From a virus (lineage: Duplodnaviria > Heunggongvirae > Uroviricota > Caudoviricetes), in the IMG/VR virus record IMGVR_UViG_2565956726_000010: DNA of 24,850 bases, one strand, 5' to 3'. Made by a program: the position numbers and the translations under genes. Shown piece by piece: positions 289-24,850 of this stretch. Every line of letters begins with the position of its first letter. The first letter of the stretch is position 1. The notes beneath the pieces were generated by a model. That model was not told the DNA's origin. It searched no databases and saw only the letters and a program-made list of their open reading frames with translations.

Positions 289-297
289 CTGCTATCC

Positions 298-2636: not shown

Positions 2637-2649
2637 ACTTTTCCACCAA

Positions 2650-2683: not shown

Positions 2684-2787
2684 CAGGACAGTGTAACTTT
2701 ACGTTTCCTCAAACGCAGTTCACCCCATAAGGCGGATGAACCTGCGTATCATAACAATATTTACAGAAGATAAATCGGCGTCTGTTG

Positions 2788-3387: not shown

Positions 3388-3409
3388 AATTACCTCTCGC
3401 TTTTCTGCA

Positions 3410-3437
3410 ATAAAAAAGGCGCCATTTCTGGCGCCCG
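3410..3437 (-). terminator. putative intrinsic terminator after J (lambda tJ-like)
   Basis: Minus strand GGCGCC-AGAAAT-GGCGCC followed by TTTTTTATTG, between the J stop and the lom Shine-Dalgarno. Confidence 0.55.
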
Positions 3438-3454
3438 TATTGGGGTTATAAAAT

Positions 3455-7153: not shown

Positions 7154-7213
7154 TCGTCATGCTCCATAAACGACAAAACCGCCCGGAGGCGGTTTCACAT
7201 GAAATATTTTGCA

Positions 7214-8502: not shown

Positions 8503-8506
8503 GGGA

Positions 8507-9205: not shown

Positions 9206-9546
9206 CAGTGAGTGACCTCTTCAAAGGTACAGTTAAAATCGGTATACATGGCATTATCCGAAATGCTCCACTCCCTGCAGACAACCCGGACAGTCCTGTT
9301 GTGTTTTGGCGGACGCCACAAAAAAGCACGAACCCCGGCATGACGGGATAAAAAACTGTCCAGCGCGGCACGGGAATATTCATCCGTGACACGAAATACC
9401 GGTTTAAACGTTTTCAGATCTGCATTCAGACCACCAGCCCGTCGCTGTTCATATCCGTCACCGAACTTTACCGTAATAACAGATGGCTTTCGTGTCGTCT
9501 CCATCCCCTCGCGGGGGATCCAGTTAAAAACTTCAGACTCAGGCAC
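9205..9546 (-). CDS. M: tail tip protein M (GTG start overlapping the tape measure stop)
   Basis: Aligns to lambda M (FRWKVKPGMD vs FNWIPREGME; VRKVRFGDGY vs ITVKFGDGY); the alignment places the start at GTG 9546..9544, which overlaps the H stop at 9541..9539; an in-frame ATG at 9504 is an alternative. Confidence 0.75.
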   Translation of the reverse strand: MPESEVFNWIPREGMETTRKPSVITVKFGDGYEQRRAGGLNADLKTFKPVFRVTDEYSRAALDSFLSRHAGVRAFLWRPPKHNRTVRVVCREWSISDNAMYTDFNCTFEEVTH

Positions 9547-12500
9547 TGCATAATCCTCCGTCCCGACGTGATGACTGCATAATTGACACAACCCTGCTGT
9601 CGATCAGATCCACCAGTCCCCTGGCTGAGCGCGCATCTATCTCGCCATTGCTCCCTTGATTCTGAATGCTGATGTGATACACGGGAGAATAAACAAATCC
9701 ACCGCCACCATTCACATTTCCAATGGCCCTGACCCCAAGAGAGCCGTCCGCTGCCCGTGTCAGTGGCATGATTGCTTCAGGCCCGGCCTCGCCCATCAGC
9801 CCGGCACCTTTCGCAAAAGCAAAATACGTCGGGGTATCCACAATGGTGTTACTGTAAGCACTCAGATTTGCCGATGTATAAACACCACCTTTTGCGTTTG
9901 CCACTGCACCGGAAAGCCAGTCGCCGACTGTACCAAGCCATCCTCCGGCACCGGACATGCTTTTGGAAAGTGACTTCAGCCCGTTAACGATGGCAGCGTT
10001 CATCAGAATTTTTGAAACTTCCTGGAGAATTGAACTCCCCCAGTTTCTCCAGTCCACAACATTTCCGGCCAGTGCATCGGAAATATTTGATACCAGCCCG
10101 TCCATAGTGGAAACGACAGCATCTGCCGCCTGCGAAGCATAATCGGTGGCACTGTCTGCCCAGTTCGTCAGTCCCTCCTGGAGTCCGGCATTCCAGTTAC
10201 TGCGTAAAGCATCAGCCTTTGCATAATAATCCTGCTGATCGCTGAGACGCTCTTCCAGATATTTTTCATTCAGAGATTTTTCCTGTTTCCACAGGGCTTC
10301 TTCAATTTCTCCGGCCTGATACTGTCTCAGTAGCTCGTTATTTTTCTGCTCAAACTCCTGCCGGATGCTCCACATTTCCTGAAGTCGTTCACGCATCCGT
10401 GAGCCTTCACCATATCCCAGTAACTGAGCCTCATTTGATGCTCTGACACTGGCATTACTGTCCGCCAGACTGCTCTCATACGCAGCAAGCTGCTCACGAA
10501 TCTTTTTCTGGTCGATGAGTGCTGCATTCTGCAAAAGCGTTTTTTTCTGCGCTTCTGACAGGGTTGATAATTCGCCCTGGCTGACCTGATATTTCATCTT
10601 AGCCAGTTCAGTATTCTGCCCTGCCAGTGCTATTTGCTCTTTTTGCTGTTTAATCAGTTGCTTATAAGTATCTTCTATTTTTTCCGCTTCGGTCTTTTTA
10701 TGCGCTTTGGGTTTATTTGCCTGGTTATTTCGCCATGCATCCAGTGAGTTATTTATATAATTCAGTCTTGCTGTCTGATACGCCTCTCCCACAAAGCCGA
10801 GATCATCCGCAGCATAACCCAGGCGGGCACGCTCACGAGCTTCCCCCTTCAGGCGGGACAGAGCCAGTTCGCGCTCGCTGTTATTCAGTGCGGTCTGCTG
10901 TTTATCATCCAGGGTTGCCTGTGGTAGCCGTAACGGTACATTCACCAGCCCCTGTCGCTGCTGAAGTAATTCATTACCGAGCCCGAGAAGGCGATTAAAC
11001 TCGGTATGCTGCCCATTCATGATCAACAGGGACTGATACGCTTTGTTTTGTTCCGCTGCCTGTTGACGGATCAACGCCATCCGTCGCTCCTCCAGCCCGG
11101 CAAGCACATCCTGAATGGATTGCGCTTTGCCCTGCATTTGAGTGAGGCGAGACTGTTCAACTGCCAGTTGATTTGTTGCTTCTGCAAGCCCTTCTGTGAC
11201 AGTTTTTACCGACGTCATGTGGTTAATCATAAAACCGTTATCGGTTGTCCAGCCCGGGTTTGCCAGCACATACTGATAGCCAGCAATTTTTTCCTGTAAG
11301 GATTTAATCTTACTTTTCTGCTCGTCAATTAACCTGTTTTGCTCCTTCAGTGCCTGTCGCGTCTTTTCCTCATTATCTGACGCTTCAGGAAGCGACATTG
11401 CCGACGTTTTCTGGCGAATTTCGTCGATTGTTGCGGCATACTGTCGTGCAGATTCTCTGGCCTGCTCCTGATTCTGATACATCGTGTACCAGGCCGCAGC
11501 CCCCAGCATGACGAGTCCCGGCACACCACCAACCAGCCCCAGCGCGCCACTTAATAAACGACTCCCCACTGACGTAACATTATTCAGCGTTGTCTGTGCC
11601 GCTGTTCTGGCCGCAATATTACGGGTAAGTGACACCTGGGCAGCTGTCAGCTTCGCTTCTGCTGCGGCCTGCCTTTCGGTACCGCGAGCAGCAACAACCG
11701 CCTGTTGCGCACGATAAACCGCCGCACGCGCCCTGGCGGTTGCTATCTGTGTCCCCCGAAGTTGCACTTCAGCAAGAGCCACTTCGTTTCTGGCTGCAGT
11801 AATTAATCCGGCAGTTGCAGATCCAGCAGACGACGCCATATTGCCAAAATATCGGGCTACCCCGACGGCAACCAGAGCACCAGCAGCGGTTGCCACGGTG
11901 TCAATATTGCCTGCAATACCATTCAGCACACCGGAGAGCGTCTTCGTCACTCCGCTTGCCTCGTTCGCACCACCAACCCAGGCCATAAAGGCGTTTTCAA
12001 CTTTGGTTGCAGAGGATGAAACCGTATCAGGCATTGCTGCATATTCATCACGCAACGCCCCAAGCTGACTAATCAGTGCAGGAACAACCTTATCGGCGGT
12101 CAGTTTTCCGTTATCCGCCATGGCCTTCAGATCCTTACGGGCAACCCCCATTCCCGCAGCCAGCGCACGAATAACACGATCGCCGTTCTCATTCACCGAG
12201 TTAAACTCTTCACCGCGCAGCACTCCCTGCGCCAGTGCCTGACTGAACTGCGTGATCACCGAACTGGCTTCTGCTGTACTGGCACCGGATAATTTCAGGC
12301 CCGTGGAGATCGCCTCGGTGACTTTCAGTACCTCCTCAGAACTGTAACCATACTCCCGCATGGAAGCTGCAGAACGGGCAAAAAGGCTGGCGTTATCAGA
12401 AAACGCCGTCCCCGTTCTCTGGCTGATCGCCATTAATTCACGCTGTGATGACTGAAAATCATCACTGGACTGTGAGGCCTGCTTCAGACGGGCATTTACT

Positions 12501-12784
12501 GAATTCCACTCATCGGCGAGAGAAATAAGATGACCGGTAGCAAAAGCCCCGGCAAATGCCCCCGCCATGTTCAGTGCCGAAGATTTAGCTGTATTTATCT
12601 GATCCGTCACTTCTGCCAGTGCACGCCGCATTTCACGGGATGCAGCAGCGGACTGTCGGCCTCCGTTCTGCATGGTACGGTAGTAATCCTGCCCCATACG
12701 CGAAGCCCGGGAGATCTCTGACTGGAATGACCGGGAATTTGCCGAGATTTTAATAATCAGTTCACGTAATGTCGCCACACTCAT
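9539..12784 (-). CDS. tail tape measure protein (not lambda H-like in sequence)
   Basis: 1081 aa, Ala/Gln-rich with long coiled-coil stretches and hydrophobic Gly-rich segments; sits between the GT chaperone and M as in all siphoviruses; ATG 12784..12782. Confidence 0.9.
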   Translation of the reverse strand: MSVATLRELIIKISANSRSFQSEISRASRMGQDYYRTMQNGGRQSAAASREMRRALAEVTDQINTAKSSALNMAGAFAGAFATGHLISLADEWNSVNARLKQASQSSDDFQSSQRELMAISQRTGTAFSDNASLFARSAASMREYGYSSEEVLKVTEAISTGLKLSGASTAEASSVITQFSQALAQGVLRGEEFNSVNENGDRVIRALAAGMGVARKDLKAMADNGKLTADKVVPALISQLGALRDEYAAMPDTVSSSATKVENAFMAWVGGANEASGVTKTLSGVLNGIAGNIDTVATAAGALVAVGVARYFGNMASSAGSATAGLITAARNEVALAEVQLRGTQIATARARAAVYRAQQAVVAARGTERQAAAEAKLTAAQVSLTRNIAARTAAQTTLNNVTSVGSRLLSGALGLVGGVPGLVMLGAAAWYTMYQNQEQARESARQYAATIDEIRQKTSAMSLPEASDNEEKTRQALKEQNRLIDEQKSKIKSLQEKIAGYQYVLANPGWTTDNGFMINHMTSVKTVTEGLAEATNQLAVEQSRLTQMQGKAQSIQDVLAGLEERRMALIRQQAAEQNKAYQSLLIMNGQHTEFNRLLGLGNELLQQRQGLVNVPLRLPQATLDDKQQTALNNSERELALSRLKGEARERARLGYAADDLGFVGEAYQTARLNYINNSLDAWRNNQANKPKAHKKTEAEKIEDTYKQLIKQQKEQIALAGQNTELAKMKYQVSQGELSTLSEAQKKTLLQNAALIDQKKIREQLAAYESSLADSNASVRASNEAQLLGYGEGSRMRERLQEMWSIRQEFEQKNNELLRQYQAGEIEEALWKQEKSLNEKYLEERLSDQQDYYAKADALRSNWNAGLQEGLTNWADSATDYASQAADAVVSTMDGLVSNISDALAGNVVDWRNWGSSILQEVSKILMNAAIVNGLKSLSKSMSGAGGWLGTVGDWLSGAVANAKGGVYTSANLSAYSNTIVDTPTYFAFAKGAGLMGEAGPEAIMPLTRAADGSLGVRAIGNVNGGGGFVYSPVYHISIQNQGSNGEIDARSARGLVDLIDSRVVSIMQSSRRDGGLCSA

Positions 12785-12794
12785 TCTCCGGACG

Positions 12795-12816
12795 AAAAAA
12801 AACCGCCGAAGCGGTT
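12795..12816 (-). terminator. terminator-like hairpin between T and the tape measure gene (likely RNA stability/attenuation element)
   Basis: Minus strand AACCGC-TTCG-GCGGTT followed by TTTTTTTT, 9 nt after the T-frame stop and before the tape measure Shine-Dalgarno. Confidence 0.4.
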
Positions 12817-12824
12817 ATGTTGAC

Positions 12825-13513
12825 TCACTGAGACACTATTAAAAGCGCGTTTTCCAGTCCAGCAAATGGATCTGATACGCCTTCTGTCTGCTCCTTCTCC
12901 CACTGAAGAAGCGCATCATTCAGTGGCACTTTGACCCCCTGCGCACCGTAAACAGCTGAAACAATCTGGGCAGCCCGGATATCAGCCCGTTCGTCCCCCA
13001 GCGGGCTGAACCTGTCAAATTCTGCCCACATCATGATTTCTGATGCGGACATTTCCCGGCGTAACTCTGACAATGTGCGCCCCATCCTGAGCGCCAGCAT
13101 CATCAGAAAACGCATCCCCGGAAGCGCTACTTTTTTTTAACCTCGCCGGCATCACTGATTAGTTCCAGAGACTGCCGAAGAAGCCGCGCATGCACCGGGC
13201 CATACACGGCAATCACCTGTTCACGATCATCCTCTGAAAATACAGGTTGCAGTCCGGTATCACACAGAACATCGATGAACAGTTCAACATCCGCTTCCAG
13301 ATTTCGGCGGGCGCGCTCCGCAACGGATAACGGTGTCTCATCATCTTTTGCTTTAACGATCTCCTGCCAGCGCAACCAGGCTTCTGCAGAAGGTTCCCGT
13401 AATACAACCGTTGCCCCTTCCCATTCAGGCACATCAACAGTTTTATGGCGAAACCCCGACATCGTTGCCAGTGCCAGATTACGGATATTTTTAGTCATCA
13501 CATCTATCCTCAT
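12825..13513 (-). CDS. tail assembly chaperone G-T fusion made by -1 programmed ribosomal frameshift
   Basis: The -1 frame after the heptamer at 13136..13130 is open for ~100 codons (KKVALPGMRFLMMLALRMGRTLSELRR...) to a stop at 12825; the arrangement is conserved in tailed-phage G/GT chaperones. Confidence 0.75.
13127..13513 (-). CDS. tail assembly chaperone (G-analog), 0-frame product
   Basis: 128 aa acidic protein directly upstream of the tape measure gene, ending ...AGEVKKK* with its last codons forming the slippery heptamer A_AAA_AAG. Confidence 0.85.
   Translation of the reverse strand: MRIDVMTKNIRNLALATMSGFRHKTVDVPEWEGATVVLREPSAEAWLRWQEIVKAKDDETPLSVAERARRNLEADVELFIDVLCDTGLQPVFSEDDREQVIAVYGPVHARLLRQSLELISDAGEVKKK
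13130..13136 (-). promoter_or_regulatory. -1 programmed frameshift slippery heptamer A_AAA_AAG (G/GT)
   Basis: Minus strand reads GTT AAA AAA AAG TAG in the G frame; classic X_XXY_YYZ motif at the last codons of G with an open -1 frame downstream. Confidence 0.8.
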
Positions 13514-14217
13514 TAACTGACGGTAACAGTGCAGGAAGTAGAGGTCACTTTGTTAACCGGGCTTGCTGAATCAGAAATCTCGCAGGTATATGCACCCGCA
13601 TCACCGGATACTGCCGATGCCTTACTGAACGTTGCCGCCGTCTGTCCGGAAACAGGAGAACCACCTTTCTTCCAGACATAAGAATAAGGCGGCACACCAC
13701 CCGCAGCCTCAACCGCCATTTCAAGTTTCGATCCGGAAGCAACCCGCAGCGTGCTTTTTAAATCGACCTTCACTTTCAGCGGCTCTGTCGTCAGCACAGG
13801 TTTACCTTTCAGGCGCAGAGAAAACGTTGCAGCCACAACACCATTGGTTCCTGCAGACCAGGTATGCTGACGCACCTCTGCCATAAAGGTAAATCCGTTG
13901 CCTGACGGAAAAATAACTTTAAAGCCATACGTGGTGTCATTGTCATAGGCACTGCGCAACGCGTTCTGGGCAGCATTGAGGTAAAAGTTGCCTGACATGG
14001 AAATCTCTGAAGCAGCACCAAGGCCGTTAATATTTTCCTGCTCAACAGAACACAGCGTGGTGACATCAATATCCTGCTTTTGTCCTGCAGTAAACTGCAC
14101 CTCTTTGATTGTACAGCTCAGGCCAAGATAGCTGGCAGAATCCAGGGTTTCTGCTGTTACCGGTGCAGACGAAATCATAATTTTCGTCAGTTGCGAACGC
14201 TCAAAATTAGAGGACAT
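13513..14217 (-). CDS. major tail protein (V-analog) with C-terminal Ig-like domain
   Basis: ATG 14217..14215 (MSSNFERSQ...) with AGGAGACG Shine-Dalgarno; C-terminal ~80 aa has Ig-like features (PPYSYVWKK...GAYTCEISD); directly upstream of the G/GT chaperone; sequence is not lambda V-like. The annotated ORF extension to 14268 is rejected. Confidence 0.85.
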   Translation of the reverse strand: MSSNFERSQLTKIMISSAPVTAETLDSASYLGLSCTIKEVQFTAGQKQDIDVTTLCSVEQENINGLGAASEISMSGNFYLNAAQNALRSAYDNDTTYGFKVIFPSGNGFTFMAEVRQHTWSAGTNGVVAATFSLRLKGKPVLTTEPLKVKVDLKSTLRVASGSKLEMAVEAAGGVPPYSYVWKKGGSPVSGQTAATFSKASAVSGDAGAYTCEISDSASPVNKVTSTSCTVTVS

Positions 14218-14229
14218 ACTCGTCTCCTG

Positions 14230-14257
14230 AAAATAAAAAACCCGCCAGCGGCGGGTG
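14230..14257 (-). terminator. terminator-like hairpin upstream of the major tail gene
   Basis: Minus strand CCCGCC-GCTG-GCGGG followed by TTTTTTATTTT, between the stop of the 14277..14621 gene and the major tail Shine-Dalgarno. Confidence 0.45.
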
Positions 14258-14276
14258 GGTAAAATCATTAACGACC

Positions 14277-14621
14277 TCAGGCTATTACCTGAAATTCAAG
14301 CGTGGCTCTGCTCAGACGGGAGTCAGGATCATACCCCTGCGTTTTAGAAATAACGGAGGGTGCCAGTTTCCTTACTGCATCAAGCGCCTGCTCACGAATA
14401 TCATCTGCGTCATCAGGTACTGTCGCCCAGACATCGATCTGCACGGTAATTCTGGATTCAGCCTGCCCATCAAGCACATCAGATGCCGTGTCAGACACCA
14501 CAGAAAACACCAGCCACGGCGGAGATACCGCAGGCTTTCCCTCCGTCAGCGGGACCACATAAGGATAAACCTGTCCTCCGGCCAGCTGAGACAACAGGGA
14601 ATACAGTGTGCCCTCCCTCAT
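14277..14621 (-). CDS. putative tail terminator / head-tail joining protein (114 aa)
   Basis: Position immediately upstream of the major tail gene, matching the size and order of tail terminator proteins in HK97-like siphoviruses; start overlaps the stop of the preceding gene; function assigned by synteny only. Confidence 0.5.
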   Translation of the reverse strand: MREGTLYSLLSQLAGGQVYPYVVPLTEGKPAVSPPWLVFSVVSDTASDVLDGQAESRITVQIDVWATVPDDADDIREQALDAVRKLAPSVISKTQGYDPDSRLSRATLEFQVIA

Positions 14622-15067
14622 TTACTTAAGACCTCATCAATAGCCTGATTCATTCGCTGTATGGCAACCTGCGCCGCCAGCTCCTCTGTCGTATCGAAAG
14701 CCGGGCGAATGAATGGATGCGCGGGCATGTTTATCGTTCCCAGCTCCACAAAGCGCCAGTAAAATGCATTTCGGGGATCGCTGGCTTTCATGCTGTTATC
14801 ACTGTTTCCGGTTCGCAGGTTCCGTCCGCGAATGTGGACACCCGAGATAATTTCCCCCCGACGCTTTGAACGCTGAGTGAGAACAACCACATTTTTCTTC
14901 AGTTTCCCGGTTCGCTCCGGCGCACGTTCAACAACTGCATCCCGCATAACTTCAGCACCGGCACGGGTGGCATCGCGCAGAACCTTATTGTTTTCTGCCC
15001 TGCTGAGCGTCTCCAGATCCCGTGCAATATCCGCCAGGCCGGAAAAATCAAGACTGAAATCCATCAC
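14618..15067 (-). CDS. putative HK97 gp10-family neck / tail completion protein (149 aa)
   Basis: Synteny in the head-tail joining block; basic protein with start overlapping the stop of the upstream gene (ATGA-type coupling). Confidence 0.5.
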   Translation of the reverse strand: MMDFSLDFSGLADIARDLETLSRAENNKVLRDATRAGAEVMRDAVVERAPERTGKLKKNVVVLTQRSKRRGEIISGVHIRGRNLRTGNSDNSMKASDPRNAFYWRFVELGTINMPAHPFIRPAFDTTEELAAQVAIQRMNQAIDEVLSK

Positions 15068-15402
15068 ACATTCCCCTTCAGGCTGCAGAGTATTTCAAGC
15101 CGGGTAGCGCGTGCATCCGGTATTGGTGGACCTTCTATACCCAGAATGGCCCCTTTAAATGCACCGGTCAGCACTTTCAGACGTGAAGTCGCTGTCACAT
15201 CGCGCCGGAATCTCATCCAGACTCTGACCGTAGCCTGAGCGGTTTCTGCTCCGCCTGAGATTATCTCCCTCCCGCTGATACCCTTAACTTCTGCCCATAC
15301 GGTAGCTCCCTCCGTCACCGTCTCCACCGGATGCCCTGACGGAGAGCGGGCGGTGGTGACATTCAGAATAATTACGCGATCACGTAATCTGCCCGCCTGC
15401 AT
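15064..15402 (-). CDS. putative head closure / head-tail adaptor protein (112 aa)
   Basis: Synteny (second gene after the major capsid gene); size typical of HK97-like head closure proteins. Confidence 0.5.
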   Translation of the reverse strand: MQAGRLRDRVIILNVTTARSPSGHPVETVTEGATVWAEVKGISGREIISGGAETAQATVRVWMRFRRDVTATSRLKVLTGAFKGAILGIEGPPIPDARATRLEILCSLKGNV

Positions 15403-15410
15403 GTCTCCTC

Positions 15411-15728
15411 CTACAAAGGAATAAAACGATAAGGCTCCAGCAGAGAAGAAAAACCAAACGGGACTGGTGCCTTGCTGACATCTGAGGAATTTTCCCGGTT
15501 TTCGTACCAGTGCCCGACCAGCAACATGAGCGCCAGCAAAACATCATCAGCTATAAGCACCCCTTCAGGATCACCTTCCGGCACCGTCTCCTCATAAAGC
15601 TTACGGTTGATAAAATTTTCTGCCTTGCGGCAGGCAGCCCGGAAATACAGCATCAGTAACTCATCATCAGTTGCATCATCTGTATCAATACGGCACTGCG
15701 CCCTGAGTTTTTCCACTATTGCTGCCAT
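15411..15728 (-). CDS. putative gp6-like head-tail connector protein (105 aa)
   Basis: ATG 15728..15726 (MAAIVEKLRAQ...) with AGGAG Shine-Dalgarno; first gene after the major capsid gene and its terminator; the ORF extension to 15908 overlaps the capsid gene and is rejected. Confidence 0.55.
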   Translation of the reverse strand: MAAIVEKLRAQCRIDTDDATDDELLMLYFRAACRKAENFINRKLYEETVPEGDPEGVLIADDVLLALMLLVGHWYENRENSSDVSKAPVPFGFSSLLEPYRFIPL

Positions 15729-15760
15729 CAGAAACTCCTGCCCGCAACACTGTGCGGGCA

Positions 15761-15786
15761 TAAAAAAACCGCGTCGGCGCGGTCTG
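15761..15786 (-). terminator. intrinsic terminator / RNA-stabilising hairpin after the major capsid gene
   Basis: Minus strand ACCGCG-CCGA-CGCGGT followed by TTTTTTTAT, 20-40 nt after the capsid stop codon. Confidence 0.55.
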
Positions 15787-15804
15787 TAACTGAACAACGA
15801 GTGG

Positions 15805-17022
15805 TTATTTGCCAGTGAGCGCCTTGATGGCTGCCACATCTTCCAGCACACAGTCAAAACGATGGAAAGCCAGAAATGCCACCTGATCAAACTCAGCATA
15901 ACGCTCAACCAGACGTTTCAGTTCCATATAAGTAACGCGGCGAATGATAAAGCGGTTGAAATCCCCCAGGAAAATGAATTTTTTTCCGGTACCAATCCCG
16001 TCAATAGCCTGATCAATAACATAAGGGATCCCCAGCACAGTAGCCGGCGTACCGCCTGCAATATCCGGCAGCCATAACGGGCGTTTCTGCCCATCCTCCA
16101 TCTCTTCAATAGTCTGCAATGTGGCATCATTGAATGCCCAGCGGTATTTCGGCCCACCACGATATGCCGGATCAATGGCATGTTTCAGGGCATTCATTTC
16201 TTTCCAGGTGAAAGCGGCAGAGGCTGCAGTCTGGATGGTTCCCGTCACCGACGCTGCCAGCCCTTTTGGCTGTAACGGTGATCCCGTTCCGGTCCCCTGA
16301 ACCAGATATTTTGCCTCTCCACGACCAATACGCTGGGCAATACGGTTTGCCAGATAAGATTCAATATCCACCCCACTGTCCTGGAGCAGCTCATTGGACA
16401 CACGAATTATTTTTGATGACAGCTTTTTAGCCCCCAGAATAGCGGTCCCGAACGTCACATCCTGTTCCGTTGCGGCTGTATTTTCCGCCAGCAGTTCGCC
16501 CTCTTCAGTCGTGCCATCAGACGTTGACCAGGTGATATCCTGCCCGGTTGATGTGGTCAGAAGTTGCGCCACACTGGCAATCCCGCCATAAGCCTTCATG
16601 GTGTCAATGATTTTGTTACGCATCTGCGTGGGCACCGTATATCCGCCCTGAGAATCCGTTGTTACACTCTGAGCCCGCAGTTCACGCATCAGATTACGCT
16701 CTTCAGCATTCAGTTCTGCAAATCCGGCACGCAGAAAACGGTTAAATGCCGCAGCGCGCTTCTCTTCCACCGCCTTTTTCCCGTTCTCCGCCTCATTATT
16801 CTGGCGCTCTTCCGGCCCGGACTCATCCACATATGCCTGATCCTGACGGCGCAACTCTTCTTCACGGGCGATTTGCTCATCCAGCGCATCCAGCTCAGCT
16901 TTCGCCCTGTTCCACTCTGCCCGTTGCTCATCAGTCCATGCGTTATCACCAATTTTTTCATGCAGTGCACGCATATCCTTTGCAATGGTGTTTCGTTTTT
17001 GCTTCATCTCATGAAGTTTCAT
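15805..17022 (-). CDS. major capsid protein, HK97 family (with N-terminal delta/scaffold domain)
   Basis: 405 aa; N-terminal ~100 aa is a charged coiled-coil (delta domain) followed by an HK97-fold capsid body; follows the prohead protease as in HK97. Confidence 0.9.
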   Translation of the reverse strand: MKLHEMKQKRNTIAKDMRALHEKIGDNAWTDEQRAEWNRAKAELDALDEQIAREEELRRQDQAYVDESGPEERQNNEAENGKKAVEEKRAAAFNRFLRAGFAELNAEERNLMRELRAQSVTTDSQGGYTVPTQMRNKIIDTMKAYGGIASVAQLLTTSTGQDITWSTSDGTTEEGELLAENTAATEQDVTFGTAILGAKKLSSKIIRVSNELLQDSGVDIESYLANRIAQRIGRGEAKYLVQGTGTGSPLQPKGLAASVTGTIQTAASAAFTWKEMNALKHAIDPAYRGGPKYRWAFNDATLQTIEEMEDGQKRPLWLPDIAGGTPATVLGIPYVIDQAIDGIGTGKKFIFLGDFNRFIIRRVTYMELKRLVERYAEFDQVAFLAFHRFDCVLEDVAAIKALTGK

Positions 17023-17036
17023 CGTCAGTAGTATCC

Positions 17037-17636
17037 TTATGCATTAAGAAGGGTCAAAAGACGCTCACGCGCCATTCGTTCGTTAACAGCTTTCTTCAGC
17101 GCACCACTCGCCCGCGCTTCCTGCCAGGCTTTCATTGAGCGGACACCAGAGTCTGCGTCCTGATAGGCCGGATATGTCACCGGGCTGACGTCATACAGAC
17201 GAGAAATGCGCGTGATTTCCCGGATAACAATCCCCTCGTCGTCTTCATACCAGCTCTCTCCGTCACGGGCGACACGAAACGCGAACGAGGACTGATTAAT
17301 GTCACCACGCAACATTGGAGACAGCACCAGGTCACAAATAGTCGGAGTATCCGGTGCAACAATGTCATAACGTAAACCGCGTTCATCCACCGACAATGAC
17401 AACGTGCCGGCAAAACTTCGTCCGAGAATGAAATTAGGATCATGATTAAACAAGCCACGTACATCATCATTCAGTACATCATCAAAAGCCCCCGGCTTGA
17501 TGATTTCACGAAATCCCCACAGAGGTTCTGAACGACTGTTAAATACCGAGCCATACCCCAGAATGTGGGTCGGGGCATTATCATATTGTTCCGCCCGCAC
17601 CTCCCCGCTGTAACAGCGCGTTTCACGGTCATTCAT
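17037..17636 (-). CDS. prohead maturation protease (HK97 family, S78)
   Basis: 199 aa between portal and major capsid genes; overlaps the portal stop by 8 nt; size and position characteristic. Confidence 0.85.
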   Translation of the reverse strand: MNDRETRCYSGEVRAEQYDNAPTHILGYGSVFNSRSEPLWGFREIIKPGAFDDVLNDDVRGLFNHDPNFILGRSFAGTLSLSVDERGLRYDIVAPDTPTICDLVLSPMLRGDINQSSFAFRVARDGESWYEDDEGIVIREITRISRLYDVSPVTYPAYQDADSGVRSMKAWQEARASGALKKAVNERMARERLLTLLNA

Positions 17637-18855
17637 CGTTCTTTTCCTCTTTGCCTTTCGTATCTTTAAAGTTATTCAACGGATTTGCTGCATTTACGCT
17701 GACCAGCATTTCATCCAGACCGTCAACCGGGTTCATATCCTCAAATGCCCTGGCTTCATTCCGACTCATCCAGCCATCTGTAATGGCAAAGTGATAGAAC
17801 TGCGCACGCTCCTGTGGGGTCCCACGGAGCAACCCCGTGAGGTTGAAACGAACGTAATACCCGGCAGCCCGTTCTGTACGGGTAAACAGGCGACGGTTAA
17901 GCTCCTGCTCCCAGTTCGCAACCCAGGGCATCATCGTGTAGCGAACAAACTGAATCGCCTGCTGCGTAATATTCGAAAATGTGGCTTTTTCCAGGTCATT
18001 AATCATGTGCGCCGGGACATTAAAAATCCCGGCAATCATCGACCGGTTCAGCTTGGTCATATCAATGATCTGAGCATCCACCGGAGAAACTGTCAGAGCG
18101 CGGTAATCCAGTTGCGCAGGCAGCAACATGGTTTTATTTTCCTGGCTGCGAAGCGCTGTCACCGCCCGCTGCCACATATTTTTAAGCCTGCCCCAGCTTT
18201 GTTCGTTCAGTTCATTTTTCACAGAAATAATACCGGCAGGACGGGCATTACCGTTAAAAAAGGCGCTGGTATACTGCTGGCCACTCATTCCCATACCAAT
18301 GGTTTCAGCATGCTGCATGATCGGGCTCAGTCCCATTTTCTGATTGTTTCCCAGCGCCCTGATATGGATCATGTCGTCCGGACTTACCGCAAATGCACCC
18401 TCTTCGTTATACACCCCGTAAGTATGACGCCCACCGGTGTTAAGTAACGTGGTTTCCCATGGCATACAGCATTCAAGGCTGGTAACCTCTCCACGACGAT
18501 TACGTTTTACCCACGTATAACCATTGCCCCACCCCAGCACATGACGCTGCTTCAGTTCCCGCCACTTATAGCTGGTCTGCCAGGCATTAGGTTCATCATG
18601 AACGAGCCAGAACAACGGATGATCGCGTGCCGGCTGAACATGCTCATTCGTTTTTCGCATCACATGCAGGGGCATCTGAGCCACACTGGATGAAATAACA
18701 TAAATACAGGCATAGACAGCAGCCAGCTTCATGGATGTTTCCGGACTGACATACACATCCCGGGCAAAAATATTATCCGTCTCAGCGGCCTCTCCGGTTA
18801 CCGGAACCGAGGGATTTTCCAGAGGCTCACTGCGAAACAGAGCATCAAGAAGCAT
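17629..18855 (-). CDS. portal protein (HK97 family)
   Basis: 408 aa downstream of large terminase; strong GAGGAG Shine-Dalgarno 5 nt before ATG 18855..18853. Confidence 0.9.
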   Translation of the reverse strand: MLLDALFRSEPLENPSVPVTGEAAETDNIFARDVYVSPETSMKLAAVYACIYVISSSVAQMPLHVMRKTNEHVQPARDHPLFWLVHDEPNAWQTSYKWRELKQRHVLGWGNGYTWVKRNRRGEVTSLECCMPWETTLLNTGGRHTYGVYNEEGAFAVSPDDMIHIRALGNNQKMGLSPIMQHAETIGMGMSGQQYTSAFFNGNARPAGIISVKNELNEQSWGRLKNMWQRAVTALRSQENKTMLLPAQLDYRALTVSPVDAQIIDMTKLNRSMIAGIFNVPAHMINDLEKATFSNITQQAIQFVRYTMMPWVANWEQELNRRLFTRTERAAGYYVRFNLTGLLRGTPQERAQFYHFAITDGWMSRNEARAFEDMNPVDGLDEMLVSVNAANPLNNFKDTKGKEEKNDE

Positions 18856-18985
18856 GTTTTCTCCTCATGGACACCACCAGTGCATAAAGCAGCAACAAAC
18901 AGCCCGACAGCATCAGAGACGCTGGCAGACCTGCATACAGATAAACGCCAGCAGTGAGCAAACCGAAACCGATCAGCCCGGTCAT
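18845..18985 (-). CDS. possible small hydrophobic protein (46 aa) between terminase and portal
   Basis: ATG 18985..18983 to TGA 18847..18845; translation MTGLIGFGLLTAGVYLYAGLPASLMLSGCLLLLYALVVSMRRKHAS is one or two TM helices; not in the ORF track (below size cutoff); no convincing Shine-Dalgarno. Confidence 0.3.
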   Translation of the reverse strand: MTGLIGFGLLTAGVYLYAGLPASLMLSGCLLLLYALVVSMRRKHAS

Positions 18986-19002
18986 ATCAGTAATAAGCTG
19001 TT

Positions 19003-20760
19003 TCACAGAATTAACAGGTCCTCATCAGGATCAAGCGTGGACAGAAAGTCATTCACGCCCCCTCCATTTACCAGAAAGCGGCTCATGGCTGTAAAAAGCG
19101 CAACAGGGCCGTCGATTTTGGCTTCCGGCGTGGATTTATTCGGGAAGATGTTGTCGTTTTTGTCCGGTTTTACAGTAACGTTAGACATCATCCAGTTCAT
19201 GACCGGATGATTGCTGTGATGGAAACGCCCGGCATAAACCAGTGATTCCGTTTCCTTCATGGCCTCTGACAGATTGCGGACCGTCTGCGGAACCTCCACC
19301 AGCGGTATCCCTTCTTCAGCCAGTGCCAGGCTGAACTGCATTGCGCTCCACGGGTCAAATCCCAGTTCCCTGAGGTTTTCACCGCCAATCCATTCCAGTA
19401 AGTCACTTTTTATCTGAGCATGATCGATAACATCACCATCCGTCAGGATGAGCTTATCCATCTCCGCCCACTTCCGGTAAAGTTCTGCCTGCTGCCGCGA
19501 GCATCGTTCCAGCCGTCCTTCCGGAAGCCAGAATTTAAAATCAGCATGAACATGTCCGTTATCGGTTCGCCAGAGTTTTGCCGCCGCACAGATATCAATC
19601 TTATGAGCAAGGTCGACGCCGACCCACATGGGATATGTTTTCAGCTCATGTTGTGGAGCAATGTATTCGCACTTCTCCCACTTAATCATATCCATCCAGG
19701 CAGATTCGGCAGTGACCCACACATTCATGTGTTTGGTAAAAAAATTCACCCGCGCAGAGACCTGCTCCTTCGCTTTTTTCGCCAGACGACGCAGATCATC
19801 CCAGCGTTTACAGATGCCCAGGCCAGGATTCGCTTTCTGCCAGACCGTTTCATCAAACGGATCATCTCCCTCATCAAGCGTGTAAATGATCGCAAAGTAA
19901 GAGTCGTCTTTTACAGCGCCCTCCACGTCGCTGTTATAGCCTCGCAATACCTTGATGGCGTAATCACGCTGCTCGTAACAAATCCCTTCCTTGTTAAAGC
20001 CAGCCGTGGTGATACCAAATAACAGGGACTGCAGACGGGCACCGGTTGCCGTTTCCAGAACGTCCCACACGTCGCGGGTTTTATGTGCATGCAGCTCATC
20101 AATAATGGCGCAGTGGATGTTCAGACCGTCCAGGTTGTTTGCATCCGAGGAAAGCGGTTCAAATTTTGATGCGCTCTGCTCCTGGTAAATCGCCAGCTTG
20201 TTGAAATCAAACAACCGCCCGAGTGTCGACCGGGCTTTTCTGACCATATTTTTGGCGTCTTCAAACACGATTCTGGCCTGGTCACGCGTGGTTGCGGCTG
20301 AATACACCTCAGCTCCGCCTTCACTATCTGCCCCCGTCATATACAGGCCGATACCCGATGACAGTGTTGATTTTGCGTTTTTACGGGCGACTTCGTTGTA
20401 CGCCGTCCGGAACCGGCGCACCATCACCGGACGTCCGCTGCCATCGCTGCGCATGACAACTTCCCCGGTTTCTTCATTGACCAGCGGAATGACAAAACCA
20501 AAAATATTAATGAGGATAAATACATGCCAGTCCATCAACTCAATGGGCTGGCCTGCCAGTGCCCCTTTTACATGAGGCACAAATTTGTAGAAATTCAGGA
20601 TGTGCTGCGCACGGGGTTCACTGAAATAAATCCCCCGCTTTTCGCCGTACTTCAGATCATCAAGAAAACGCTGGCAGGCCAGGCGGACAAATTCGCCAGC
20701 AACAATTTCTCCTGCAACAACACGTTCGGCGTAGCGGATCCCGTCAGCCACTTTTGCCAT
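19003..20760 (-). CDS. terminase large subunit
   Basis: 585 aa; Walker A-like region near the N-terminus and acidic nuclease-type motifs; ATG 20760..20758 overlaps the small terminase stop (TGATG). Confidence 0.9.
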   Translation of the reverse strand: MAKVADGIRYAERVVAGEIVAGEFVRLACQRFLDDLKYGEKRGIYFSEPRAQHILNFYKFVPHVKGALAGQPIELMDWHVFILINIFGFVIPLVNEETGEVVMRSDGSGRPVMVRRFRTAYNEVARKNAKSTLSSGIGLYMTGADSEGGAEVYSAATTRDQARIVFEDAKNMVRKARSTLGRLFDFNKLAIYQEQSASKFEPLSSDANNLDGLNIHCAIIDELHAHKTRDVWDVLETATGARLQSLLFGITTAGFNKEGICYEQRDYAIKVLRGYNSDVEGAVKDDSYFAIIYTLDEGDDPFDETVWQKANPGLGICKRWDDLRRLAKKAKEQVSARVNFFTKHMNVWVTAESAWMDMIKWEKCEYIAPQHELKTYPMWVGVDLAHKIDICAAAKLWRTDNGHVHADFKFWLPEGRLERCSRQQAELYRKWAEMDKLILTDGDVIDHAQIKSDLLEWIGGENLRELGFDPWSAMQFSLALAEEGIPLVEVPQTVRNLSEAMKETESLVYAGRFHHSNHPVMNWMMSNVTVKPDKNDNIFPNKSTPEAKIDGPVALFTAMSRFLVNGGGVNDFLSTLDPDEDLLIL

Positions 20761-21242
20761 CAGTCTCTCGCTTTTAAAAGCTCTGCCAGCGGATCAACAT
20801 TATCCGGTCCGGCGGTATTTACTTTTGCCCGGCTTGCCGGTGACATACCAAATTCTGCAAGCATCGCCCGGATCCGCTTCCAGGCATCCGCTTTCATCGC
20901 AGCAGCCGGGTGTGCCTTAATCAGCACATCACCGTTCTGCGTTTCCGAGCGGTAGGTGTACCCCTCAACATCGAGTGTTTCGCAGTGATGCCGGTATTCG
21001 GTATAGGCTTCCACCAGTAGCTCAAGCGCACGCGCATCAAGCTGAGAAATGATCCCTTCCGCATTCAGCTCTTCCGCCATTCGCCTGAACCAGTACTTCC
21101 CCTGCGCCCCTAAATGTTGCGGAATTTTAGGGAGACCTTTTTCATCCTTTTTAGCGGTTTTTTTGAGGTCTTTAACTGGCCGCTTTGAGGGGTTGCCTCG
21201 TATCAAATGCAGGCGTGGCGGGATTTTCGGGGGTCCAGACAT
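20760..21242 (-). CDS. terminase small subunit (P27-like family)
   Basis: 160 aa basic N-terminus (PKIPPRLHLIRGNPSKRPVKDLKK) directly upstream of and coupled to the large terminase gene. Confidence 0.8.
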   Translation of the reverse strand: MSGPPKIPPRLHLIRGNPSKRPVKDLKKTAKKDEKGLPKIPQHLGAQGKYWFRRMAEELNAEGIISQLDARALELLVEAYTEYRHHCETLDVEGYTYRSETQNGDVLIKAHPAAAMKADAWKRIRAMLAEFGMSPASRAKVNTAGPDNVDPLAELLKARD

Positions 21243-21389
21243 AATCGGTTTTACCTATCAATCATTTAATCACATTCCAAAAAAAAGTTTTCGAACCTGC
21301 GGCGATGCGAGGAAAGGTCAGGCGGCGGTACTGAGCAGCCAGGGTTGCAGAGATTTGACCCGCCCCTCCCCTACAGATGGGAACTGTTA
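21243..21389 (-). other. presumed cos (cohesive end) region between HNH endonuclease and small terminase
   Basis: Synteny only: HK97-like phages place cos between the HNH gene and terS; the interval is non-coding and contains a GC-rich motif (aggtcaggcggcggtac) next to A/T tracts; the exact nick sites cannot be identified by eye. Confidence 0.3.
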
Positions 21390-21740
21390 TCAATTGATGC
21401 GTTCGCGCGCTGTTTTTGCTTTATGACAGGGCCAGCACAGACTCTGCAGGTTACTGTCTGCATCTGTGCCACCATGAGCTTTCGGAATGATGTGGTCCAC
21501 AGTTCTGGCTTCAACGGCTCTCCCATTGCGCAGGCAGTTCTGACACAGATGATTATCACGCTTCAGTATGCGCGCACGTATGGCATCCCATTTCGAGCCA
21601 TAGCCACGCTGGTGGCGGCTCAGTCCGCGTTGATGCTGTACCCATCCTTCGCCACGATGTTTATCGCAGTAACCAGAACTGTCTGTGGTTGTACCTGCAC
21701 ATCCACGCTTACGGCAGGCGCGTGGGATTAGTGCTGGCAT
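21390..21740 (-). CDS. HNH endonuclease (terminase-associated)
   Basis: 116 aa with Cys pairs and the HNH core (CQNCLRNGR...VDHIIPKAHGGTDADSNLQSLCWPCHKAK); positioned just upstream of cos/terS as in HK97 gp74. Confidence 0.85.
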   Translation of the reverse strand: MPALIPRACRKRGCAGTTTDSSGYCDKHRGEGWVQHQRGLSRHQRGYGSKWDAIRARILKRDNHLCQNCLRNGRAVEARTVDHIIPKAHGGTDADSNLQSLCWPCHKAKTARERIN

Positions 21741-21758
21741 GTTTCGCCCTTATATAAA
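21728..21758 (+). promoter_or_regulatory. candidate sigma70-like promoter for the plus-strand moron gene
   Basis: TTAGTG then 17 nt then TATATA(AAT), about 120 nt upstream of ATG 21879; by-eye match only. Confidence 0.25.
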
Positions 21759-21878
21759 TCAAAGGTGACCTGCATTGAGTATCTCCATGGAATAGATTTG
21801 CTGCTGATATGAGACAGATCAATAGACTTCATGAGCCAACGGGTGTAGATATTACTTTTTACTTCAGAGGGTTAACTC

Positions 21879-22418
21879 ATGGATATTAAAGATAAAATCA
21901 ATACCATTTTGTTATGTGACATTGCCATCCACCTAGGTATCGAAACTGATATTGATCCACAGCTTGTTAAATATGCTGTGTCATCTGGTAATGATTGGGT
22001 TATCAAGGCCGAATATTCACATTTGGATGTTGACGAACCAAGTAAAGAAGATCGTGATTTTGTTACTGCTGTCTTGAATATGTATCGCGGACTTTCCAAT
22101 GCTTTCAGGAAACTTAGTGATGACGAGCAAAAAGAATTAGTCCGTGACCATCATCTAAAAATACATGATGGGGCAATTCAGCTCCCAGGTTTCGACGGTA
22201 ATAATGAATGCGATTACTTCAGTATCATTGAGGCATATCAGAAAATTGATCGCTTCCCCGAACAGAAACAGCCCATTGCCAATACTCATTCACGTACAGA
22301 ACATCTCTATAACGCAATGCTTGATGAGTTTAAGAAAATTGACGCTGTAAATCGAAGCTGGGATTTATCGAAGGAAGAACTGGCATCCATTCTTTCCACA
22401 GCTCCACGCAGTTTCTAA
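21879..22418 (+). CDS. YfbU-family (UPF0304)-like protein, 179 aa; moron on the opposite strand to the phage late operon
   Basis: ATG 21879 with AGAGG Shine-Dalgarno ~8 nt upstream; AT-rich coding sequence; by-eye alignment to my recollection of E. coli YfbU across four blocks ([24 protein letters not shown] ~ [34 protein letters not shown] ~ [29 protein letters not shown] ~ [29 protein letters not shown] ~ LSANEINQII); followed by a hairpin terminator. Confidence 0.6.
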   Translation: [179 protein letters not shown]

Positions 22419-22423
22419 GTGCT

Positions 22424-22690
22424 TTAGGCGGGTTTCCAACCCGCCTTATTATGCTCGTATATAGAGAAGGAAGCACCCAAATTAACCAGCGCGGATTTCT
22501 TTTCCTCAATACGGCTGTTAAGTTCAGCAACTGCATGCGGGCGTATGGCCTCAAGAAAAGCACTATATTGATAGGCAGACTGGATTGTCACACCAAGCCC
22601 TGCACCACTTTCCAGTATACCTTTCTGTCGCTGTAGCTCTTTCATCTCGTTATAGATGTAATGTGCGTTACTTAGGTTTTCTACGTTCAC
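22424..22690 (-). CDS. hypothetical 88-aa protein (GTG start) convergent with the YfbU-like gene
   Basis: Protein-like helical composition; AGGAAG about 10 nt upstream of GTG 22690..22688; alternative ATG at 22645 gives 73 aa; its last codons overlap the terminator hairpin, which lowers confidence. Confidence 0.35.
   Translation of the reverse strand: MNVENLSNAHYIYNEMKELQRQKGILESGAGLGVTIQSAYQYSAFLEAIRPHAVAELNSRIEEKKSALVNLGASFSIYEHNKAGWKPA
22426..22447 (+). terminator. intrinsic terminator after the YfbU-like gene (possibly bidirectional)
   Basis: AGGCGGGTT-TCCA-AACCCGCCT followed by TATTATG, 8 nt after the plus-strand stop codon; it overlaps the 3' end of the convergent 88-aa ORF. Confidence 0.5.
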
Positions 22691-22845
22691 GCCCTAAGTT
22701 CTTCCTGCAGTTAGCCTGCACTGATTTGTTATGCGCCAATATGTCCCGCTTCGTCTGTTGCATTATCATAAGTAATAGCGTAGGTTGACACCTTGGCTCT
22801 CTTTCGCCACCGGCGAATCTTTAGCGGATTATCCTTGGCCGGTTT

Positions 22846-23313
22846 TTATCTGAGACATTGCTCACGAATGTATAGCTGTGCCCCTTCCAGTTGCTTCTGC
22901 ATCGTCATCAACCGTTCTCTGAGGGTGAAATAATCCCGTTCAGCGGTGTCTGCCAGTCTGGGGCTGGTTGCATTATCCACGCTGGTGGGTCCGGTGGCTT
23001 CACGCACGGCTGCGGAGCAACTGGCATTGACCCGCAGGCGCTTACGACCAGCGGCAACATCAGCGCGCAGAGTTTCATTTTCAGCTTTCGCATTGGCTAA
23101 TTCTCTCGAGTACTTTGCATCGAGCGCAGCAACATCACGCTGACGCTGTTGCATGTCAGCGATGGTGGCAGTCGCCTGCTTCAGCTCACTGACTTTTTTA
23201 TCACGCTGTTCTTTGTAGGCGATGGCGTTATCACGGTAATGATTGACCGCCCACGACAGGCAGACGATGGTGCAGATAACCAGAGTATAAATAATCGCTG
23301 CGACTCTGCTCAC
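22846..23313 (-). CDS. Rz: i-spanin Rz
   Basis: Aligns to lambda Rz ([33 protein letters not shown] vs lambda [33 protein letters not shown]); start taken as GTG 23313..23311 overlapping the endolysin stop; the ORF track's upstream extension begins at a TTG. Confidence 0.85.
22908..23093 (-). CDS. Rz1: o-spanin Rz1 (lipoprotein embedded in Rz in the +1 frame)
   Basis: 61 aa [22 protein letters not shown]... with lipobox Cys and a proline-rich segment, C-terminus ...[15 protein letters not shown] as in lambda Rz1; entirely inside Rz. Confidence 0.85.
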
Positions 23314-23843
23314 TGATCTATCCCCCAACAGGCTAATGCGCTTTCCTGGTCACGACGAATAACCTGTCCATAGCAGTTATTTGAACGTATGCGGCAATCG
23401 CGCCCACCATCTTTTATCCACCAGCGAATCGCCTCGCATGCGCCCTTACGATCACCGGCATTCAGCCGCTTATAAAACGTCGACGGGAAACACTTACCGG
23501 GGCCAATGTTATAGGGACAGAATGACGCTATACCCGCTTTCTGTGGTTCGGTCAGTGGTACTTTAATATTGCGCTCTACCCATGCCAGCGCCTTATCACG
23601 TTCAATAGCGTTAACCTGGTCGCATTTTTCCTTCGACAGCTTCATTCCCGGTATGACGGGCTTACCATCCACCATTGTGGCACCCCGACAGATGGTCCAG
23701 ATGCCGGCCCCATCGCGGTATGCCGTTGTGTGGTTACCTTCTTTTTCATCCAGAAACTGGTCGAGAATATCAGGCGCGGGCGCACCGACGGCAATCAGTG
23801 CCAGAACGGCAGCCGACAGGCCGTATCTGATTTTTGCGTTCAT
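23310..23843 (-). CDS. R: endolysin, T4-lysozyme-like glycosidase with N-terminal SAR (signal-arrest-release) segment
   Basis: 177 aa; weakly hydrophobic Gly/Ala-rich N-terminus ([18 protein letters not shown]) followed by a catalytic region with E...D...T spacing ([20 protein letters not shown]), as in phage 21 / P1 SAR lysozymes. Confidence 0.85.
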
Positions 23844-23906
23844 GGATATTTATCAGGATTTATCGGTTTCTGCCCACGGACAGGTTTATCTGTTCCGGTC
23901 AGTGAC

Positions 23907-24257
23907 TTAAGGTTGTGATTCCGGAGGAGTCTTCAGAGAACCAGTAATTCTTCCTGGTAGCTTTCCTTTGTAGGTTATCCACACATTCTGCGCCTCTAAA
24001 ATTACGGGGCGCTTTTCCGGCGACTGCTCATCCCCTTCACATAACCCGGCAGCAACATCCAGGAAGACCTGTCTGATGCTCCTTCTGGCTGCTGCCTCAT
24101 AAAACCCCAGCGCGGCACCTTCAACACGGTCCAGCGAGATGTCCAGGTCAAAAATTTCACCGTCAAAGCGTTTTTTGTCCCGTAACGCTAAAGTTACCGT
24201 AACTTTATTCTCAAAATTGCGGATCCCTTTCACAATCAGTTCATAGTTTTGAGTCAT
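23907..24257 (-). CDS. hypothetical 116-aa soluble protein upstream of the endolysin (possibly DUF1327-like)
   Basis: Native start ATG 24257..24255 (MTQNYELIVKG...) with GGGGAGAG Shine-Dalgarno 7 nt upstream; no hydrophobic segment, so not a holin; I recall an unrelated-function gene in the same position (ydfR in E. coli Qin) but cannot verify family membership. The ORF-track extension to 24311 is an IS2 read-out artefact. Confidence 0.55.
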   Translation of the reverse strand: MTQNYELIVKGIRNFENKVTVTLALRDKKRFDGEIFDLDISLDRVEGAALGFYEAAARRSIRQVFLDVAAGLCEGDEQSPEKRPVILEAQNVWITYKGKLPGRITGSLKTPPESQP

Positions 24258-24284
24258 TGAATTACTCTCCCCGTGCAGCCTTAC

Positions 24285-24850
24285 TGGATTTGCCCCTATA
24301 TTTCCAGACACCTGTTATCACTTAACCCATTACTGGCTTGCTGCCGTAGATATTCCCGTGGCGAGCGATAACCCAGTGCACTATGCGGATGCCATTCGTT
24401 ATAATGCTCGAACGCCTCTGCAAGGTTCTTTGCTGCCGTTAACCCGTCTGGTTTGGGCATGACACTGATGTAGTCACGCTTTATCGTTTTCACGAAGCTC
24501 TCTGCTATGCCGTTACTCTCCGGACTCCGCACCGCCGTGCTCTTCGGTTCAAGCCCCAACATCCGGGCAAACTGCCGTGTTTCATTAGCCCGGTAGCATG
24601 AACCATTATCCGTCAGCCACTCTACTGGAGACGCCGGAAGCTCGTTGCCGAAGCGGCGTTCCACCGCTCCCAGCATGACGTCCTGTACTGTTTCACTGTT
24701 GAAGCCGCCCGTAGTGACCGCCCAGTGCAGTGCCTCACGGTCACAGCAGTCCAGCGCGAACGTGACTCGCAGTTTTTCTCCGTTATCACAGCGGAACTCG
24801 AACCCGTCAGAGCACCATCGCTGATTACTTTCTTTCACAGCCACTCTGCC
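24285..24850 (-). mobile_element. IS2 insertion sequence, right-end portion (element continues beyond the window)
   Basis: Terminal sequence tggatttgcccctatatttccagaca at 24285..24310 matches the IS2 right inverted repeat as I recall it; the adjacent ORF translates to the C-terminal part of IS2 transposase InsD. Confidence 0.9.
24296..24850 (-). CDS. insD: IS2 transposase InsD (orfB, DDE integrase core), 5'-truncated by the window edge
   Basis: Translation ...[66 protein letters not shown]...[36 protein letters not shown] is near-identical to my recollection of IS2 InsD; the first codon in the window is GTG (Val), not a true start. Confidence 0.9.

Follow-up and report, generated by a model that had tools for sequence, protein, structure and literature searches.

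Where is the holin of the lysis cassette in IMG/VR virus record IMGVR_UViG_2565956726_000010? In the 24,850 nucleotides (nt) of this caudoviricete virus that were analysed (the window), a signal-anchor-release (SAR) endolysin gene is preceded by a gene for a soluble protein of 116 amino acids (aa) and, beyond that, by the insertion sequence IS2, and no holin gene is visible in between. The whole picture is very probably that of a standard pinholin cassette that was split by IS2 within the holin gene, with the 116-aa protein, a member of the YdfR family, as a soluble accessory protein. The cassette (phage-21 pinholin, YdfR, SAR endolysin, Rz/Rz1) is of an ordinary and very common Escherichia coli prophage type that is already known. 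Its parts, in the order of late transcription, are as follows:

24285-24850, minus strand: right-hand 566 nt of an IS2-family element, in the orientation of phage late transcription; its right inverted repeat (IRR) terminus ...GGGGCAAATCCA ends at 24285
24296-24844, minus strand: C-terminal part of IS2 orfB, with rve and rve_3 domains
24258-24284, minus strand: stretch of 27 nt from IS2 to ydfR, containing the holin remnant
24262-24284, minus strand: 3' remnant (23 nt) of an S21-type class II holin (pinholin) gene, identical to positions 4000-4022 of the E. coli locus L001
24265-24272, minus strand: Shine-Dalgarno (SD) sequence GGGGAGAG of ydfR, inside holin codons 69-71 and untouched by IS2
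23907-24257, minus strand: ydfR-family gene, 116 aa, DUF1327, soluble (PF07041, E 9.2e-42)
23844-23906, minus strand: spacer of 63 nt from ydfR to the lysozyme gene
23310-23843, minus strand: SAR-type endolysin, a T4-lysozyme-like muramidase of the RrrQ/933W R type, 177 aa (PF00959, E 4.7e-25)
22846-23313, minus strand: Rz i-spanin, 155 aa according to the annotation of relatives (PF03245, E 1.9e-49), overlapping the endolysin stop codon
22908-23093, minus strand: Rz1 o-spanin lipoprotein, nested in Rz in the +1 frame (PF06085, E 1.4e-18)

The lysozyme opens with a weakly hydrophobic, Ala/Gly/Ser-rich segment (residues ~5-27, Kyte-Doolittle (KD) value 1.87), in which 9 of the 17 residues from 8 to 24 are Gly, Ala or Ser, and the triad E35-X8-D44-X5-T50, as read from the sequence, lies downstream of it. 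Both marks of a SAR endolysin, a signal-anchor-release domain and an E-X8-D/C-X5-T triad, are therefore present in the 177-aa protein. It is homologous to the R21 structures 3HDE and 3HDF and to RrrD (4ZPU) at E ~1e-16, and 93% identical to R of phage 933W, which is on the Young laboratory list of SAR endolysins (PMC9239132). All this agrees with a first-pass annotation of the window, which had read a SAR-type N-terminus here and had placed a soluble protein, without a membrane-spanning open reading frame (ORF), directly before it. With a KD value of 1.6 as the threshold for a transmembrane (TM) helix, the 116-aa protein is hydrophilic (best 19-residue window 0.69), and none of the frames of at least 20 aa from stop to stop on both strands of 23844-24283 reaches the threshold (best value 1.17). 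The gene order and the lack of an ORF with holin topology in this interval thus stand as first described.

What once stood before ydfR can be seen in other genomes. In a megablast search with positions 22800-24283 against 5,426 complete E. coli genomes, the cassette was present in 2,334 of them at a coverage of at least 80%; thirteen genomes were 100% identical, and the 5' end of the query overlaps a gene annotated as 'class II holin family protein'. The IS2-free locus L001 differs from 18800-24284 of the window by one mismatch in 5,485 nt (99.98% identity), and the match reaches the second base of holin codon 65 and breaks there, precisely at the IS2 end. The L001 holin gene has 216 nt, encodes 71 aa (WP_000839574.1) and is separated from the ydfR ATG by 4 nt, and the IS2 boundary, between 24284 and 24285, abuts its nt 194. 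Since the identity to L001 continues up to the IS2 end inside the holin gene, 24262-24284 represent the final 23 nt of that gene: they run from the second base of the R65 codon through K66, A67, A68, R69, G70 and E71 to the stop codon TAA. This 3' end, stop codon included, had been missed in the first pass. Of a class II holin gene the window shows these last 23 nt only, and L001 has the same 23 nt at the end of its S21-type gene.

The IS2-free relatives L001 and L002 carry a 71-aa PF04971 holin directly before ydfR, and all ten other places that encode an identical endolysin are IS2-free and have the holin (71 aa, PF04971), the DUF1327 protein (116 aa) and the lysozyme at fixed spacing. An exact look-up of the 71-aa holin returned the UniRef name HOLIN_BPP21, and the protein has an MKSM dual start, a second transmembrane domain (TMD2) with a KD value of 1.72 and a weak TMD1. 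Judging by its sequence, it is the S21 pinholin/antiholin of phage 21. S21 is a class II holin whose dual start also yields an antiholin (PMC9636201). The relatives thus bear out the expectation that a pinholin gene belongs just upstream of a SAR endolysin of this kind.

The element that separates the two parts of the holin gene is 95.8% identical to positions 766-1331 of IS2A of E. coli K-12 (24 mismatches in 566 nt) and is therefore a variant, diverged allele; database matches under it are annotated as IS3-family transposase. In K-12, IS2A has the left end TAGACTGG and is flanked by the 5-bp duplication ATTAC. In the window, 24280-24284 read GTAAG in phage orientation, which is the right copy of the 5-bp target site of IS2, and GTAAG also stands at the left IS2 junction in three E. 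coli contigs (L018, L019 and L025). The features of an IS2 insertion are thus all accounted for, as the terminal inverted repeat and the DDE integrase core of orfB are in the window and the left copy of the 5-bp duplication is seen in other genomes.

From this, the upstream junction is predicted to read ...CGT CGT AAG followed by TAG ACT GG, i.e. GAGGACCGTCGTAAG and then the left inverted repeat of IS2, TAGACTGG. The TAG from IS2 would end translation after K66 and create a predicted holin of 66 aa that ends in REDRRK and lacks only residues 67-71 (AARGE); as reconstructed, it should retain both TMDs and the dual start. By exact protein look-up, this predicted 66-aa holin was found as a public protein (P0178) on 15 contigs. 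The predicted left junction, GACCGTCGTAAG joined directly to TAGACTGGCCCCC, is present verbatim in L018, L019 and L025, which break inside IS2. Since both the 66-aa holin and the IS2 junction occur in public contigs, the holin appears to have been trimmed and displaced rather than destroyed. The first-pass annotation had left open whether the holin was located beyond IS2 or had been destroyed by it. The relatives and the junction at nt 194 place it on the far side and show that the insertion hit it, whereas destruction does not fit a loss of AARGE only.

In the window (24280-24285), L018 (6199-6295), L019 (6199-6217) and L025 (2260-2399), IS2 occupies one and the same nucleotide position and points the same way, and the upstream prophage context of L018 differs. 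The IS2 copies in L018 and L019 are identical to IS2A, and that in L025 has 5 mismatches in 140 nt. Two IS2 alleles at one site, one identical to IS2A and the other a variant of roughly 96% identity, suggest a hot spot or conversion between IS elements, and there are hints of an insertion hot spot that yields a pinholin exactly five residues shorter. On another E. coli contig (P0050), an IS2 terminus is fused within the 3' part of ydfR, after ...GRITG. The lysis region has been struck by IS2 repeatedly.

The 116-aa protein is identical to RefSeq WP_000193289.1, which is annotated as YdfR family protein in the identical loci, and its match to the DUF1327 profile covers positions 1-92 of 93 with 141.6 bits (cut-off 25). 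It matches phrog_406 (114-aa form) over its full length, and in total five PHROGs match (406, 2091, 1085, 2735 and 34145), all labelled 'unknown function'. A search of NCBIfam gave no match and a sequence profile search of the PDB nothing meaningful. No similarity to antiholins (the S107/S21 71, T4 RI/RIII and P1 LydB families) was found, and DUF1327 was the only Pfam match at E <=0.01. The comparison with DUF1327 and antiholin families that had been proposed for this protein therefore gives a strong match to the former and none to the latter in Pfam, NCBIfam and PHROGs. What was first called an uncharacterised lysis-region gene belongs to a named family, YdfR/DUF1327. An extended ydfR ORF of 134 aa, starting from GTG at 24311 inside IS2, was considered and rejected, since the conserved SD sequence stands before the ATG at 24257, which also agrees with RefSeq.

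The YdfR family is narrow, with 64 representatives at 50% identity among 1.84 billion proteins, many of them fragments, and its named members come nearly all from lambdoid phages of Escherichia and Shigella. Residues 1-75 form a conserved core, and the C-terminus is modular, with forms of 103, 104, 114/116, 176/183 and 263-268 aa. The core has a ratio of nonsynonymous to synonymous substitution rates (dN/dS) of ~0.3 and is under purifying selection. The structure model of the core (mean predicted local distance difference test score, pLDDT, 90.7) has three antiparallel strands and one long helix (beta-beta-beta-alpha); the C-terminal ~40 residues gave no confident model. Window positions 23907-24030 encode a conserved C-terminal segment, EKRPIILEAQNVWITYKGKLPGRITGSLKTPP, that recurs in the homologues P0020, P0025, P0142, P0144 and L013 (2001-2807). 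It is followed by nothing in the forms of 114/116 aa, by a helical extension of 60-70 aa in those of 176/183 aa and by ~150 aa in those of 268-287 aa. In YdfR of K-12 and of phage mEp460 the segment is fully replaced, and in P0144 it stands behind an unrelated N-terminus. In P0074 and P0099 the DUF1327 core is tandemly duplicated inside the protein (residues ~14-75 repeated).

The order holin, DUF1327 protein, lysozyme was found in 18 of the 18 loci inspected (12 independent E. coli loci, the Qin prophage of K-12, and phages 86, mEp460, Stx1_499, PhiR12_2_star and Evi), with a gap of 3-4 nt between holin and ydfR. The ydfR SD sequence and the 4-nt spacing from stop to ATG are conserved in L001, mEp460 and phage 86, and nearly so in K-12 Qin (GAGAGGAGAG). 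In 933W, S is followed directly by R, without YdfR, and the junction before R matches: GGGGAGAG in the last holin codons, TAA, 4 nt, ATG. Since 933W has the same junction of S stop codon and ribosome-binding site (RBS) before R, the tight spacing belongs to the site rather than to ydfR, and since 933W lacks YdfR, the protein is dispensable for this type of cassette. Together with the phage records, in which the holin family is found 438 times versus 101 times for YdfR, this marks ydfR as an accessory gene that was inserted between S and R and not a core lysis component.

Taken together, the ancestral order would have been S21 holin/antiholin (71 aa), YdfR (116 aa), SAR endolysin (177 aa) and Rz/Rz1. 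An IS2-family element would then have transposed into holin codons 65/66 in the orientation of late transcription, with duplication of GTAAG. The holin gene, now of 66 codons, would lie ~1.3 kb upstream, past the window edge, and YdfR, R and Rz/Rz1 would have kept their own ribosome-binding sites downstream of IS2. During lysis the pinholin would depolarise the inner membrane, upon which the membrane-tethered SAR endolysin would be released and refold to an active muramidase, and the Rz/Rz1 spanin would finally disrupt the outer membrane. YdfR would stay outside this membrane machinery, as a cytoplasmic beta-beta-beta-alpha protein present in a subset of such cassettes. Going by K-12 YdfR, its likeliest activity would be to bind the catalytic half of RNase E, RNA or both at a late stage of infection.

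For the role of YdfR two proposals have to be compared. In the only experimental study of its function that we found (Göpel et al. 2026, PMC13232886), a two-hybrid screen that used RNase G as bait yielded residues 1-72 of K-12 YdfR. These residues suffice for two-hybrid interaction with RNase E and RNase G, with a preference for the N-terminal half of RNase E, and both RNase E(1-598) and DNase-resistant nucleic acid co-purify with Strep-tagged YdfR; overexpression did not impair growth and changed the transcriptome little, and the protein is classed as cytoplasmic (PMC13232886). Because residues 1-74 of the window YdfR are 80% identical to K-12 YdfR over this interacting region, we favour, with modest confidence, a role as a cytoplasmic accessory protein that may bind RNase E or RNA. 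In a more specific form of this idea, YdfR would dock on the RNase E catalytic half and/or RNA via a core resembling a double-stranded RNA-binding domain (dsRBD) and would tune the decay of late transcripts or host RNA, thereby indirectly setting lysis timing or burst size; it would be a late protein made from the pinholin transcript, possibly by coupled translation, with swappable C-terminal modules. We regard this specific form as speculative and unlikely, but if true it would describe a new class of phage-encoded RNase E modulator in the lysis cassettes of E. coli, Shigella and Shiga toxin (Stx) phages.

The other proposal is that YdfR regulates lysis timing itself, as the first-pass annotation had suggested as a possibility, here in the form of a cytoplasmic antiholin-like protein (comparable to T4 RIII or P1 LydB) that acts on the C-terminal tail of S21 or on the SAR endolysin. 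It would account for the invariant place right after the holin, with a 3-4-nt gap and the RBS in the last holin codons even for members that are 47% identical, and for the confinement of the family to phages with this holin type. In addition, an envelope-permeability screen with chlorophenol red-beta-D-galactopyranoside (CPRG; PMC3879167 supplement) picked up a ydfR mutant of K-12, but polarity on rrrQ or essQ may explain this hit. YdfR has no sequence or profile likeness to any antiholin, its PHROGs give no hint of a function, and the dual start of S21 already provides an antiholin (PMC9636201). Phage 933W, whose holin and endolysin belong to the same types, lacks YdfR and has the identical S-stop/RBS junction before R, and overexpressed K-12 YdfR shows no growth phenotype. 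A direct role in timing is therefore rated below the RNase E/RNA role, because of the lack of antiholin similarity, the antiholin of S21 itself, the absence of YdfR from 933W and the spacing set by the site; we consider it improbable. The suggestion of a timing regulator is thus unsupported, as the protein is dispensable and the only experiments indicate cytoplasmic RNase E/RNA binding.

As to the cassette as a whole, the appearance of the window alone, with no TM ORF upstream of a SAR endolysin, could also suggest a genuinely holin-less system, like the SAR endolysin and releasin of phage Mu, in which the 116-aa protein replaces the holin. This is refuted by the final 23 nt of a holin gene at 24262-24284, the S21 holin in all IS2-free relatives, the absence of a hydrophobic segment from YdfR, and the public 66-aa holin with its junction, and it retains a negligible probability. 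It is harder to dismiss that IS2 is polar and shuts off everything downstream, from ydfR, R and Rz/Rz1 to the rest of the late operon, which would make this a dead, non-lysing prophage with a functionless cassette. IS2 is classically polar when inserted in one of the two orientations. A promoter scan between the IS2 end and ydfR, which also took into account a possible hybrid promoter reading outward from IS2, found no promoter-like site, and IS elements are recurrent here in other genomes (P0050 and the truncated holins). The late operon (1-19000) lies downstream of IS2 and hence depends on read-through. However, lambdoid late transcription starts from pR', is antiterminated by Q and passes terminators, and the Q gene and a tRNA/late leader are located upstream in relatives. 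The RBS of ydfR is kept, and the downstream ORFs are all intact and 99.98% identical to IS2-free relatives, although this identity shows only that the insertion is recent. Silencing of the cassette thus seems possible but is not what we expect.

Some observations also weigh against a split but working pinholin cassette. The holin body and the left end of IS2 lie outside the window and the right junction is unmatched, so the 66-aa holin is a reconstruction from other genomes. The exact right junction (IRR plus holin remnant) was absent from complete E. coli genomes, IMG/VR, GTDB representative genomes and JGI metagenomes, and a nucleotide search of genomes and metagenomes for the predicted left junction gave no match. 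The cassette also needs late transcription to cross IS2, which is plausible from what is established for lambda, and S21(1-66) to trigger normally, which it probably would if C-terminal truncations of lambda S are a valid analogy. The window YdfR has G51 (24105-24107, at the start of the helix), versus E51 in at least 90% of relatives. The evidence on RNase E and RNA was obtained with tagged K-12 YdfR under overexpression; that protein differs at the C-terminus and produced few changes in the transcriptome, and the authors could not rule out that the co-purified RNA stemmed from a contaminant (PMC13232886). The G51 allele is also carried by the 100%-identical E. coli loci.

Downstream of the endolysin, the cassette continues with a two-component spanin, Rz with an embedded Rz1, both with Pfam matches. 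The mechanical ORF of Rz has 160 aa with a TTG start at 23328, and its N-terminal TM segment comprises residues 4-30; its counterpart in relatives is annotated as 'Lysis protein' (L001 4971-5438). Rz1 is annotated as Rz1 family lipoprotein in the identical loci. Two genes are placed between Rz and the HNH/terminase module:

22424-22690, minus strand: gene of 88 aa, phrog_5415, with no function assigned, downstream of Rz
21879-22418, plus strand: YfbU-family gene (PF03887, E 6.5e-12), beside the 88-aa gene

In some relatives (L008 and L012) an acetyltransferase-like gene takes the place of these two. Beyond the YfbU gene follow an HNH endonuclease and then the small and large terminase subunits. 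The late operon (1-19000, minus strand) is of the HK97-head/lambda-tail type, looks intact and reaches the window start; it encodes a portal, an S78 prohead protease, an HK97-type capsid protein, a tape measure protein, L, I, J, Lom and the N-terminus of a tail fibre.

The 'missing holin' is thus the product of an IS2 insertion and a window boundary and not a new lysis strategy, which we regard as a clean negative. The integrity of the lysis cassette affects the release of particles or toxin by such prophages, including relatives of Stx phages. YdfR is part of the lysis cassettes of roughly 2,300 of the 5,426 E. coli genomes and of many Stx phages, and the RNase E/RNA data together with the core model provide a concrete hypothesis for its role.

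Compared with the cassettes of phages 21, DLP12 and 933W, the window is alike in the endolysin (933W R, R21 and RrrD), in the embedded Rz/Rz1 and in the junction of S stop, 4-nt spacer and ATG, and the holin of its IS2-free relatives is identical to HOLIN_BPP21. It differs by the extra ydfR between S and R and by a holin that was split off by IS2 and would be five codons shorter. Among IS2 insertions of the IS3 family, the IRR and the orfB integrase core agree, and the window copy is a variant allele. Within the DUF1327/YdfR family, the window allele shows no substantial difference save G51. The K-12 Qin cassette essQ-ydfR-rrrQ-rzpQ/rzoQ has the same order and spacing, and its YdfR core is 80% identical (residues 1-74). 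However, K-12 YdfR has 103 aa, with an unrelated C-terminal segment after residue ~75, unlike the 116 aa of the window protein, and Qin has a different type of spanin (DUF2514 RzpQ) and no IS2 in essQ.

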